Assembly: GCA_963844715.1 (NCBI GenBank)
Contig: CAWJPJ010000004.1
Location: 96,001 to 160,000 of the forward strand
Length of the DNA stretch: 64,000 nucleotides
Source of the DNA: an uncultured Phycisphaerales bacterium
GTDB taxonomy: Bacteria; Planctomycetota; Phycisphaerae; Tepidisphaerales; Tepidisphaeraceae
Direction: 5' to 3'
Every line of letters begins with the position of its first letter. The stretch's first letter is position 1. Both the position numbers and the translations under genes were made by a program. The notes beneath the pieces are model-generated. The model was not told the DNA's origin, made no database searches, and saw only the letters and a list, made by a program, of their open reading frames with translations. Of the stretch, positions 35,602 to 39,734 are shown piece by piece.

Positions 35602-37034
35602 GTGAATAATTGAGGTTCAAGGTTTATAGAAAATAGACCTCCGCGACTTCTGTCTTTATTAATTTTGGTTTTTCCGTCTCGGTTCGGATGCAAGTCCGGC
35701 CGAAGGCAGAAGTCGTCGAGCACCTTTTTTGGCGAAAGCGGGTCACAGGAATCTTTTTCCGACGCGCAGCATGAATAATGCGAGAACGGCGGTGATCGAT
35801 AAATGTGATCAAGCTATTAAGGGTGTATGGTGGATGCCTTGGCATCGAGAGGCGATGAAAGACGTGGCAGCCTGCGATAAGCTCCGGGGAGCTGGCAAAC
35901 AAGCGACAATCCGGAGATTTCTGAATGCGGAAACGCGGTCCCGAGTTAATCGGGGTCATCCGGCGCTGAATTCATAGGCGTTTGGAAGCAAACCCAGGGA
36001 ATTGAAACATCTTAGTACCTGGAGGAAAAGAAAGAGACATCTATTCCGTAAGTAGCGGCGAGCGAAAGCGGAACAGCCCAAACCGGGATTCGTCCCGGGG
36101 TTGCGGAAGCACTGAGGGGTTACAAAACCGTCGATAGCGGAACAGCCTGGAAAGACTGGCCATAGAGGGTGATAGCCCCGTATGCGACATCGACTGGTCC
36201 CCGTTAATATGTGCTCTCCAGAGTAGCATCGGACTCGTGGAATCCGGTGTGAAACCGCCCGGCCCACCGGGCAAGGCTAAATACTCCTCGATGACCGATA
36301 GTGAACAAGTAGGGCGATTGAACGGTGAAAAGCACAGCTATTAGCTGAGTCAAAAGTACCTGAAACCATACACTTACAAGCGGTCGGAGCACTATGGCCC
36401 GGAGCAATCCGGCAATGTGTGACGGCGTACCTTTTGCATAATGGACCGGCGAGTGCATGTTTGCGGCAAGGCTAAGGCGCGATCAGCGCTGGAGCCGTAG
36501 CGAAAGCGAGTCTTAAAGTGGCGATATAGTCGTAGGCATGCGGCCCGAAACCTAGTGATCTACCCGTGGTCAGCGTGAATGCCCCGTAAAAGGGGCAGGA
36601 GGCGCGAAGCCGTGAACGTTGAAAAGTTCTGGCATGAACTGCGGGGAGGAGTGAAAGTCTAATCAAACTGGGAGATATCTGGTTCTCTTCGAAATGCCTT
36701 TAGGGGCAGCCTGGAACAACTACCCTTGGGGGGTAGAGCTACTGAAAGGAGACGTGGGGCTACCCGCCTGCACGCTCCTACCAAACTCCGAATACCCAAG
36801 GGACTACTTCCGGAGTGAGTCCGCGAGGGATAATCTTCGCGGTCAAGAGGGAAACAACCCAGACCGTCTGCTAAGGTCCCCAAATCCAGCTTAGTTCGTT
36901 AGGAAGTTATTGTGCTGAGACAGCCAGGATGTTGGCTTAGAAGCAGCCACCATTTAAAAAGTGCGTAATAGCTTACTGGTCGAGCACAGTAGCGCCGTAA
37001 ATGATCGGGAATAAGCAGGATACCGAAGCAGCGG

Positions 37035-37473
37035 GTTCTAGAGACTAGAACCTTGATACTAGAAACTAGAGAGAACTCCATGCTCTTTGGCAAGCTCATC
37101 GTTTTTCAGAAAGCGTATGACTTGTCGCTCTCGATCCACAAACGATCGATTGGCTTTCCCAAATTCGAGCAGATGGAATTGGCGTCGCAAATACGGCGCA
37201 CCAGCAAATCCATCTGTGCGAATCTTGGCGAGGGAATGGGCAAGCAAACATCCTCGAAGGATGTTGTTCGCTTTTCTGCGCATAGCCATCGGCTCATGCG
37301 ACGAAACACGAATCTGGCTGAAATACTCGTACGACCTCGGCTACCTAGATGCCGGGGAATACGAGCAATTTGATGCCGGATACGTGGAAGTGGGCAAAAT
37401 GCTGACTGGCTTAATCAAAAGATGGTCGGTCGAATCCTCTAGCCCCTAGTGTCTAGGTTCTAGTCTCTGGAAC
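37035..37473 (+). mobile_element. 23S rRNA intervening sequence at helix 45
   Basis: Lies between ACCGAAGCAGCGG and GGTAGAAGAGCGTT; 28-bp terminal stem 37035-37062/37446-37473. Confidence 0.92.
37080..37449 (+). CDS. Four-helix-bundle protein (23S rRNA intervening-sequence protein family); one extra T in run 37272-37275
   Basis: Joined: MLFGKLIVFQKAYDLSLSIHK..FPKFEQMELASQIRRTSKSICANLGEG..RFLRIAIGSCDETRIWL..DLGYL..EVGKMLTGLIK. Confidence 0.93.
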
Positions 37474-37495
37474 GGTAGAAGAGCGTTGCACGCCG

Positions 37496-37526
<31 letters not shown>

Positions 37527-38117
37527 CGCGTGCAAGCGAGAATGCCGGTATGAGTAACGATAATGCAGGTGAAAATCCTGCACGCCGAAAGCCTAAGGTT
37601 TCCTGGGGAAGGTAAATCCGCCCAGGGTTAGTCGGAAGCTAAGACGAGGCCGAAAGGCGTAGCCGATGCACAGCAGGTTAATATTCCTGCACCGTCTATA
37701 ACGGTTGAACCCGCGTATGTGTTTTTTCAAGGCAGATCCTCCGATCAGACGTGGAGGTTTCTGAGCAATCGGATCGAGGCCGCTTTGTTGCCGAAGTCTG
37801 TGGAGAAAGAACCGAGAAAAGTGCGCGGGGGACAATATAGGCGCCCGTACTAAAACTGACACAGGTAGGCGAGGAGAGTATCCTCAGGCGCTCGAGAGAA
37901 CTGCGGTTAAGGAACTAGGCAATCTAACCACGTAACTTCGGGAGAAGTGGTCCCTACCCAGCAATGGGAGGGCGCAGGAATCGGACTGGGCGACTGTTTA
38001 TCAAAAACACAGTTCCGTGCTAACTCGCAAGAGGATGTATACGGAATGACGCCTGCTCGGTGCCGGAATGTTAAGGGAGCTGGTCAGGGATTCGTCCCAA
38101 AGCTGGCAACCGAAGCA

Positions 38118-38161
<44 letters not shown>

Positions 38162-39140
38162 GTTCCTTGTCGGGTAAGTTCCGACGTGCATGAACGGCGT
38201 AACGACTTGGTCGCTGTCTCGACCGCAGACTCGGTGAAATTGAAGTGGCGGTGAAGATACCGTCTACCCGCAGCAAGACGGAAAGACCCCGTGGACCTTT
38301 ACTGCAACCTGGTACTGATGCCGGGTGTGGACTGCGTAGGATAGGTGGGAGGCGTTGATCCCTCGGTTCTGGCCGAGGGGGAGCCAACGGTGAAATACCA
38401 CCCTGTTTGCATTCGTCATCTCACCCTGACCCCTGAATCGGGGCAGGGAACCGTGCTAGGCGGGCAGTTTGACTGGGGCGGTCTCCTCCAAAAGAGTAAC
38501 GGAGGAGTGCAAAGGCAGGCTCAGGCCGGTTGGCAATCGGTCGTCGAGCGTAAAGGTAGAAGCCTGCTTGACTGCGAGTGCTACAGCACGAGCAGAGCTG
38601 AAAGGCGGCCTTAGTGATCCTGTGGTTGCGTGTGGAAGCGCCATAGCTCAACGGATAAAAGGTACCCCGGGGATAACAGGCTGATCGCCTCCGAGCGTCC
38701 ATAGCGGCGAGGCGGTTTGGCACCTCGATGTCGGCCCATCGCATCCTGGGGCTGAAGGCGGTCCCAAGGGTTTGGCTGTTCGCCAATTAAAGCGGTACGC
38801 GAGCTGGGTTCAGACCGATGTGAGTCAGGTCGGTCCCTATCTGCTGTGGGCGTAGGAACCTTGACGGCACCTCTTCCATAGTACGAGAGGATTTGGAAGG
38901 ACGGACCCCTGGTGTACCAGTTGTCGCGCTAGCGGCATCGCTGGGTAGCTATGTCCGGAACGAATAAACGCTGAAAGCATCTAAGCGTGAAGTCTATGCC
39001 AAGACGAGGGTTCCATGGGAGCTTGCTCCCGAGAGACCCCGAGTAGACCACTCGGTTGATAGGCCGGAGCTGTACGGATCGTAAGGTCTTTAGGTTACCG
39101 GTACTAACGGTCGATTGCTTGGTCACTTTTATCGATCATT

Positions 39141-39184
39141 CTAGAAGCTAGAGTCTAGGAGACTAGAAGCTAGAGTTTAGAAGC
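39141..39184. repeat. Tandem CTAG-core heptamer array in the 23S-5S spacer
   Basis: CTAGAAG CTAGAGT CTAGGAGA CTAGAAG CTAGAGT TTAGAAG. Confidence 0.85.
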
Positions 39185-39297
39185 GATTTAGTGGCCTGCA
39201 TTTTCCCAAGAAAGTTTGTTCGACGTAAGCGGAAGAACCTCAAACATATTCACTTGAAATTTGTCCCCGCCGGCGCTTGACGGCGCCGGCGGGGCTT

Positions 39298-39406
39298 CGT
39301 TGGTGGCTTTACCGGTAGGGTCACACCCGTTCCCATTCCGAACACGGTCGTTAAGCCTGCCGGGCCGATGATACTGCTTCAGCGGGAAAGTAGGTCACTG
39401 CCAGCG
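39298..39406 (+). rRNA. rrf: 5S rRNA
   Basis: CACCCGTTCCCATTCCGAACACGGTCGTTAAG, GGGAAAGTAGGTC, terminal stem CGTTGGTGG/CTGCCAGCG. Confidence 0.95.
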
Positions 39407-39494: not shown

Positions 39495-39734
39495 ATGGGC
39501 CAGCTGAATATCCGTTTAACTCCCGACTTCGATAGAAAGCTGGCCCGGCTCATGGAACTGCGCGGGATTTCGACCAAGACAGAGGCGGTTCGCGCCGCGG
39601 TGAGCGAAGCCGTGGAGCGCGCGGAGCACCGCCCGACGACGAGTTGGGAGAAGTTGCGTGGGGCGGCGAATAAGTATGAGCAAAGGCCGCGCGAGCAATG
39701 GCTGACGGAAGACGATCTTTGGGGGGATAGATAG
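39495..39734 (+). CDS. Ribbon-helix-helix (VapB-like) antitoxin
   Basis: MGQLNIRLTPDFDRKLARLMELRGISTKTEAVRAAVSEAV, RHH-like N-terminus. Confidence 0.7.
   Translation: MGQLNIRLTPDFDRKLARLMELRGISTKTEAVRAAVSEAVERAEHRPTTSWEKLRGAANKYEQRPREQWLTEDDLWGDR

Follow-up and report, generated by a model that had tools for sequence, protein, structure and literature searches.

What is the 439-nt segment (positions 37035..37473, plus strand) that interrupts the 23S rRNA gene of the window, i.e., of the whole 64,000-nucleotide stretch analysed here, and is the reading frame within it a functional part of an element or a passenger? We hold with considerable confidence that the segment would be an ORF-bearing helix-45 intervening sequence (IVS) of the kind known from Leptospira and Coxiella, and a member of a subfamily of heptamer-armed four-helix-bundle cassettes specialised for rRNA operons. 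The 23S gene extends over 35807..39126 (plus strand; Rfam RF02541, 2582 bits) and is the sole copy in the assembly as judged by blastn; the 5S gene (RF00001) follows on the same strand at 39299..39406. The insert stands in the place of the helix-45 hairpin, and its length of 439 nt between two anchor sequences, as given in the original prediction, is exact. The counterpart in a fetched copy of the E. coli 23S gene is a 22-nt hairpin (positions 1162-1183), while the same site in relatives spans 8-30 nt, with one case of 66 nt. The latter, in G056 (L031), is an extended hairpin with neither an ORF nor heptamers. We take the hairpin to be helix 45 on the basis of the helix numbering and of the match to the Coxiella fragments of ~1.2 and ~1.7 kb (PMC4990558). 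On either side of the insert lie a 5' part (35807..37034, plus strand) and a 3' part (37474..39126, plus strand), which would yield fragments of 1228 and 1653 nt, respectively, plus any stem stub. The G+C content of the insert is 49%, against 59% for the genome.

The host assembly (G000; 4.55 Mb, 8 contigs, 85% complete) includes three PF07596 genes, a family which we take to be a marker of the Planctomycetota and of which 14 control genomes contained none. Its 16S gene lies on another contig (C8) than the 23S gene, so that the rRNA genes are unlinked, an arrangement reported to be common in Planctomycetes (bioRxiv 10.1101/705046). The planctomycete host that had been proposed is in this way supported, although only indirectly. 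Beyond the terminator of the 5S gene there is an ORF of 79 codons (39495-39734, plus strand) which by eye resembles a small DNA-binding or antitoxin-type protein.

Both ends of the insert are built from 7-nt units with a CTAG core. The left arm (37035..37072, plus strand) is made of three bases and five units, and the right arm (37439..37473, plus strand) of five units, one of which contains the stop codon of the ORF. The tetranucleotide starts at 37038, 37045, 37059 and 37066 on the left and at 37439, 37446, 37453 and 37460 on the right, in a period of 7, with variant units at 37052 and 37467. The predicted arms of CTAG-core heptamers are thus present with five units each, four of them exact, in a genome in which CTAG occurs at a density of 0.44 per kb. 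Pairing from the ends inward, between 37035-37062 and 37446-37473, reproduces exactly the 28-bp stem described at the outset (25 Watson-Crick pairs, 2 G-U pairs and 1 mismatch), and is followed by a 3x3 loop and six more pairs. The fold of the 511-nt region has an energy of -217.6 kcal/mol (z -9.6), and none of 100 shuffled sequences folded as well.

The pairing of the arms was compared over 64 distinct helix-45 inserts with both anchors, among the matches listed, of which 20 are CTAG-type and 44 are of other types. Each of the 20 CTAG-type inserts pairs at least 18 of its first 20 positions with its own other arm, as against 44 of 380 cross-pairings between inserts. The mean number of paired positions out of 20 is 19.3 for own arms versus 12.0 for cross-arms in this group, and 17.8 versus 11.0 in the other 44. 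The long stem is retained in 60 of the 64. Across these inserts, the stem is kept while the sequence of the arms changes.

The loop encloses an ORF (37080..37449, plus strand) that runs from an ATG at 37080 to a TAG at 37449, the stop codon being the TAG of the CTAG at 37446. When the frame is read through a break in a T run with an X at that position, the product has 122 aa; the length of about 122 aa and the stop codon inside a right-arm CTAG had both been called exactly. The Shine-Dalgarno signal is weak, with a duplex to the 16S tail of -3.5 kcal/mol compared with -6.3 kcal/mol in G002, a genome of the same genus. PF05635 is the sole Pfam match of the ORF: the first half aligns with profile positions 2-61 and the second with 62-106, both with scores above the cut-off. 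The whole ORF scores 101 bits on TIGR02436 (cut-off 24). The profile search proposed for the four-helix-bundle family therefore places the joined ORF above both cut-offs. An AlphaFold model of the G002 orthologue (pLDDT 96.9) predicts four long helices, and a fold search with this model returned Xcc0516 (PDB: 2GSC; TM 0.90, rmsd 1.1 A) and BT_0352 (PDB: 2RLD), the solved structures of which both contain five chains. The match to Avd (PDB: 4DWL) is weaker (TM 0.79; E value 0.018), and the modelled protein has the Avd-like four-helix-bundle fold that had been suggested. The G002 orthologue is basic (pI 9.6) and, among the matches listed, the pI exceeds 8 in 68 of 81 subfamily proteins; an alignment of 63 relatives, again among the matches listed, has 17 invariant and 18 nearly invariant columns. 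Because Avd is described as an RNA-binding pentamer of positive charge (bioRxiv 10.1101/2023.10.23.563531; PMC10053308), RNA binding is a fair guess for the insert protein as well.

The one-base shift of frame falls in the T run at 37272..37275 (plus strand). The insert at the same site in G002 is 442 nt long and its ORF, of 119 aa, is intact; 88 of 116 compared residues are identical between the two proteins. The dN/dS ratio (Nei-Gojobori) comes to 0.08 upstream of the break, 0.14 downstream of it, and 0.11 when pooled, values which are approximate since dS is 1.4 and hence near saturation. Judged by these ratios the ORF is under purifying selection, which argues that some protein is made. 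Among ORFs of at least 200 aa from 400 kb of the 3.9 Mb of G002, 48 of 120 orthologues tested are frameshifted in G000 (62 shifts, 0.45 per kb), and 7 of 128 in the reverse direction, the two directions having been ascertained unlike. At this rate the chance of such an error in a gene of the length of the ORF is 15%. With ~40% of the tested G000 genes affected, other findings of broken genes in this assembly are likely to be assembly errors too. For the same reason, the break itself is most likely an assembly indel; given also the intact frame in G002 and the low ratios on both sides, we have high confidence in this explanation, which the original prediction had offered as a possibility and which is now well supported at the level of sequence comparison. 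A 203-nt contig from a soil DNA run is identical to 37299-37501 without a difference, although it covers the 3' half and not the T run, ends 28 letters past the right junction (the minimum of the tool being 31) and is possibly not independent of the assembly.

In the proposed mechanism the insert would be transcribed together with the 23S rRNA, RNase III would cut the 28-bp stem, and the ends would be left unjoined, giving a ribosome with 23S pieces of ~1.23 and ~1.65 kb. We regard this sequence of events as very probable, and the excision step is a strong inference from homology, as RNase III excision without religation was shown for Coxiella (PMC4990558). RNase III is encoded on C7 of G000 (PF14622; 93 bits) in an open frame of 247 aa, and the enzyme is also present in each of the five relatives tested. 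The protein would probably be made, at least at times, and form a basic pentameric ring like Xcc0516. That the excised RNA is released as a mini-mRNA made at rRNA rates, as was originally imagined, is a guess, because the excised RNA of Coxiella is described as short-lived and its ORF as expendable and probably untranslated (PMC4990558). The structure of the Coxiella ribosome is reported to contain neither the IVS nor the IVS protein (PMC13392368). Sequencing runs gave a best word share of 0.27 and none reached half; in the four examined, all of them in the form of contigs, the helices found were the empty ones of other organisms, and no RNA of the ORF was found.

That only the stem of an excised insert matters, the ORF being carried along passively, untranslated or in decay, and that the frameshift is a real step of pseudogenisation, corresponds to the reading of the Coxiella authors (PMC4990558). 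It would agree with the weak Shine-Dalgarno signal here, and 2 of the 83 subfamily ORFs tabulated among the matches listed (L139 and L147) are indeed broken, a share that is underestimated because the search favours intact ORFs. We nevertheless consider a passenger ORF improbable in view of a dN/dS of about 0.1 on either side of the break, the invariant and nearly invariant columns in the 63 relatives listed, and the frequency of frameshifts in G000, with the 15% chance that it implies for a gene of this length. It is very improbable that the insert is left uncut and forms a large expansion segment at the surface of the ribosome: RNase III is reported to be absent more often where the rRNA genes are unlinked (bioRxiv 10.1101/705046), but it is present in this genome, the long stem persists in all but four of the 64 distinct helix-45 inserts among the matches listed, and the IVSs so far described are as a rule excised (PMC4990558, PMC2672173). 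That an intergenic cassette was wrongly joined to the rRNA gene might be imagined in an assembly that is rich in indels and contains other cassettes, but the probability of such a chimera is negligible, since orthologous inserts occupy the same site in G002 and in G466, which in effect refutes it. The occupation of helix 45 by 70 of the best 80 (of 530) relatives, and the exact 203-nt contig with its 28 letters past the junction, if independent, likewise speak against it. Three other classes of element were considered and rejected. No Rfam intron reached the gathering score in the window, and the only Pfam match of the ORF is the one named above, which speaks against a group I or group II intron or a homing-endonuclease insertion. 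An insertion sequence or MITE is opposed by the want of a second copy in the genome, where only arm-like matches of 33-37 nt were seen, and of any transposase family match. The Avd protein of a diversity-generating retroelement (DGR) is excluded by a score of 30 bits on NF033474 (cut-off 80) and by the finding that the 85%-complete genome has no PF00078 match, i.e., no reverse transcriptase by this profile.

The survey of filled and empty 23S alleles that had been suggested found a sporadic presence. When 60 relatives were searched, 37 had a match at the site, of which 1 was filled, 32 were empty (one of these from the unpublished genome G004) and 4 ended too early, and 23 had no match. A profile search of the host family (141 genomes, many of them without an assembled 23S gene) found a full-length subfamily gene in 2 of the 140 others, G002 and G466, and the latter also has a filled site. 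In a tree of the 23S flanks (27 rows; 10 loci were left out because their anchors failed, seven of which were later read as empty), the filled alleles of this genus and of metagenomes cluster at three separate places among the empty alleles, all within the host family. Such a pattern would follow either from repeated gain by transfer or from repeated loss, which the tree cannot separate. The empty helices of G036 (L012) and of both G520 copies (L160 and L164) have ends like the bases of the arms, which suggests that they are stumps left after deletion, although they could equally be pre-insertion sites. A phylum-wide alignment search (E value 1e-32) had no hit in 401 genomes, in a sample without a positive control, and shows rarity at most; it missed G000 itself because its gene is split. 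On balance we slightly favour a scheme in which the filled allele would move between hosts mainly by homologous recombination in the conserved rRNA flanks and would disappear when a deletion between the arms removes all but a short stump.

The subfamily of the insert protein is confined almost entirely to rRNA operons. Three relatives in GTDB genomes, retrieved with the 64-aa first half of the protein as the query, all lie in 23S genes, in alphaproteobacterial and gammaproteobacterial assemblies. A search with an alignment of four rRNA-resident proteins, in which selection was by likeness of the protein only, gave 530 confirmed metagenomic stretches. Among the best 80 of these, some of which are duplicates, 78 are in rRNA operons, and BLAST of the flanks to the E. 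coli 23S gene placed 70 in helix 45, 7 in what we take to be helix 25 (at about E. coli 540-553) and 1 in the 23S-5S spacer, with 2 outside rRNA. As a control, 24 more distant PF05635 loci (6 from this genome and 18 from relatives) were inspected, and none has rRNA nearby. The repeat unit follows the protein tree, with 3 changes as opposed to 22.0 +/- 1.8 in 500 shuffles, an agreement that is no proof of co-evolution because kin share repeat labels. The protein trees exclude L139 and L147, whose ORFs are broken.

Cassettes of the subfamily apparently reached helix 25 on more than one occasion. A single clade of the eight helix-25 proteins is rejected (p-AU 0.011, on a quick tree with few columns), while a clade of the five CTAG-type helix-25 proteins is not (p-AU 0.88); in the latter test the constrained search scored 29 log units better than the free search, which shows the quick tree to be suboptimal. 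In one gammaproteobacterial operon helix 25 holds a CTAG cassette and helix 45 is empty. In one gammaproteobacterial assembly (G061) two 23S genes carry different cassettes, of CAGA type at helix 45 in one and of CTAG type at helix 25 in the other (L042, L043), which may reflect either two independent invasions or a mixed bin. As the exchange of helix-45 alleles cannot explain a change of site, some other route of insertion exists. It is possible, if rather doubtful, that the rare jumps to helix 25 and to the 23S-5S spacer would share the route of intergenic heptamer cassettes, probably with the protein binding the RNA of its own arms. Help from the protein in the moves to new hairpins is put forward here as a hypothesis.

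Repeats of the same unit also occur without an ORF. Just past the 3' end of the 23S gene, in the 23S-5S spacer, the window contains an ORF-less hairpin of CTAG heptamers (39141..39183, plus strand); the fold of 39120-39200 has a z of -4.5, and none of 200 shuffled sequences was as good. The 23S 3' trailer of G002 has a hairpin of another heptamer family, and the metagenomic contig L091 has a full gene-bearing CTAG cassette in the 23S-5S spacer. Within the 23S gene of the window, a variable hairpin of 12 nt (36085..36096, plus strand) has as its G002 counterpart a 75-nt ORF-less CTAG hairpin (G002:C7:71140-71215; L059:11130-11225, minus strand). The counterpart of the same helix in G019 (L014) is a 46-nt hairpin of a different heptamer family.

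Outside the rRNA genes, a triple-CTAG pattern matches G000 at 14 places and G002 at 11, and 132 of the 141 family genomes at none. The tie between the insert and dispersed CTAG arrays looked strong in a set of 61 genomes and weaker in that of 141. G000 contains 150 arrays of period 7, of which 79 have an inverted partner within 600 nt, compared with 1 of 60 controls. It also has six other PF05635 genes, three of which lie, by eye, between inverted repeat arrays; positions include G000:C8:462819-463280, C7:480336-480623, C6:590026-590313, C5:92608-92916 and C4:89907-90173. The gene on C8, frameshifted and located between inverted arrays, has by eye HPr and enzyme I as neighbours; the one on C5 has direct 6-nt repeats on both sides, and the one on C4 an in-frame stop. 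At three positions in G000 (C6:93021-93060, C6:214691-214740 and C8:110425-110460) a CTAG of an array adjoins one and the same 16-nt terminus of an element that bears a transposase, as if the heptamer arrays were a target of that element. A preference for CTAG is a known property of IS5-type elements. CTAG arrays also precede, by eye, the genes for L24, L6 and methionine aminopeptidase in G547 (C1:621900-627760; L178), a genome in which helix 45 is empty.

The distribution of these arrays bears on the thought that the insert acts as a master element, its protein working in trans to seed the CTAG arrays and hairpins that lack an ORF at other places in the genome. The concentration of triple-CTAG matches in G000 and G002 would fit it, as would the second, ORF-less CTAG hairpin inside the 23S gene of G002, the CTAG hairpin in the spacer of the window at a location where L091 carries a full cassette, and the agreement between repeat unit and protein tree, subject to the labels shared by kin. 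We nonetheless find it rather unlikely. G000 and G002 are of one genus and count as one event only, while G001, also of that genus, has no triple-CTAG match. G466 has none either, although its site is filled; in G547 (59% complete) there are 15, helix 45 is empty and no gene of the subfamily was found; and in the gammaproteobacterial genome with a CTAG cassette the matches are confined to its two cassettes. A related and more speculative suggestion, which we rate as rather unlikely, is that the insert is an autonomous selfish cassette of rRNA operons. Its Avd-like pentamer would recognise the RNA of its own heptamer arms and, together with a host enzyme, aid insertion into the loops of hairpins in the rRNA unit (helix 45, helix 25 and the 23S-5S spacer); hairpins of the same heptamer unit that lack an ORF would be its non-autonomous derivatives, and the stumps its remains. 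If this were true, PF05635 would gain a function, and IVSs and bacterial heptamer arrays would be two stages in the life cycle of one mobile element.

ORF-bearing IVSs of 23S rRNA have been known as a type of element for 30 years, and the present insert is of a known kind. The Leptospira 23S IVS (Ralph and McClelland 1993, 1994) is said to be a helix-45 insert with this ORF family, of sporadic occurrence and with reported horizontal transfer, in a host of another phylum than the present one. Our reading of the insert as a helix-45 IVS of this kind would add a free-living and probably planctomycete lineage to the hosts of ORF-bearing 23S IVSs. The predicted two-piece 23S RNA would have consequences for checks of RNA quality, for rRNA depletion and for surveys by long amplicons. 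In the literature on IVSs, 23S rRNA, the family names and heptamers we found no planctomycete example, which subscription papers or supplementary tables may list, nor, within the same scope, any account of a subfamily specialised for rRNA or of a tie to dispersed heptamer arrays. The comparative result, that a subfamily stays in rRNA operons while changing its site, is of greater weight than the single case. Filled and empty sites, a stump, an ORF-less hairpin and a second site make up a natural series in which the function of the IVS protein and the movement of IVSs could be tested. With a subfamily bound to rRNA, a conserved ORF, changes of site and ORF-less derivatives, the question of function and mobility becomes easier to test.

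The closest described counterpart is the IVS of Coxiella burnetii, which likewise lies in helix 45 of a single-copy 23S gene, is about 440 nt long with a terminal stem, has a sense-strand S23p/PF05635 ORF with heptamer repeats before the start codon, and is predicted to give fragments of about 1.2 and 1.7 kb (PMC4990558). The two differ in the heptamer unit, which has a CTAG core here and is GACAGAT in Coxiella, in the host, which here is of a free-living lineage, and in the state of the ORF, which appears to be under purifying selection here while that of Coxiella is described as decaying (PMC4990558). The conservation of the ORF by selection speaks against the Coxiella view of the protein as expendable. 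The 23S_rRNA_IVP insertions of the CPR are similar in that the family occurs at several rRNA sites and that ORF-less insertions are found at the same sites (PMC11270868), although homing endonucleases and group I introns predominate in that survey, and its main text contains neither the word repeat nor any word beginning with Planctomyc. The intergenic heptamers of Xanthomonas, Nostoc and Beggiatoaceae resemble those of G000 in being abundant 7-nt arrays, often in close inverted pairs (PMC4692102, PMC4679880); a term search of the same papers returned no mention of a four-helix bundle, S23 or 23S. Avd (4DWL) is alike in its fold (TM 0.79) and basic charge, but the insert protein falls below the NF033474 cut-off and no reverse transcriptase was found in the genome. 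With the PF05635/TIGR02436 proteins Xcc0516 (2GSC) and BT_0352 (2RLD) the likeness is nearer still, both family cut-offs being passed and the TM to 2GSC being 0.90. What separates the insert protein from the distant PF05635 genes is its location, in that these lie outside rRNA operons (0 of 24 near rRNA), whereas its own subfamily lies inside them (78 of the best 80).
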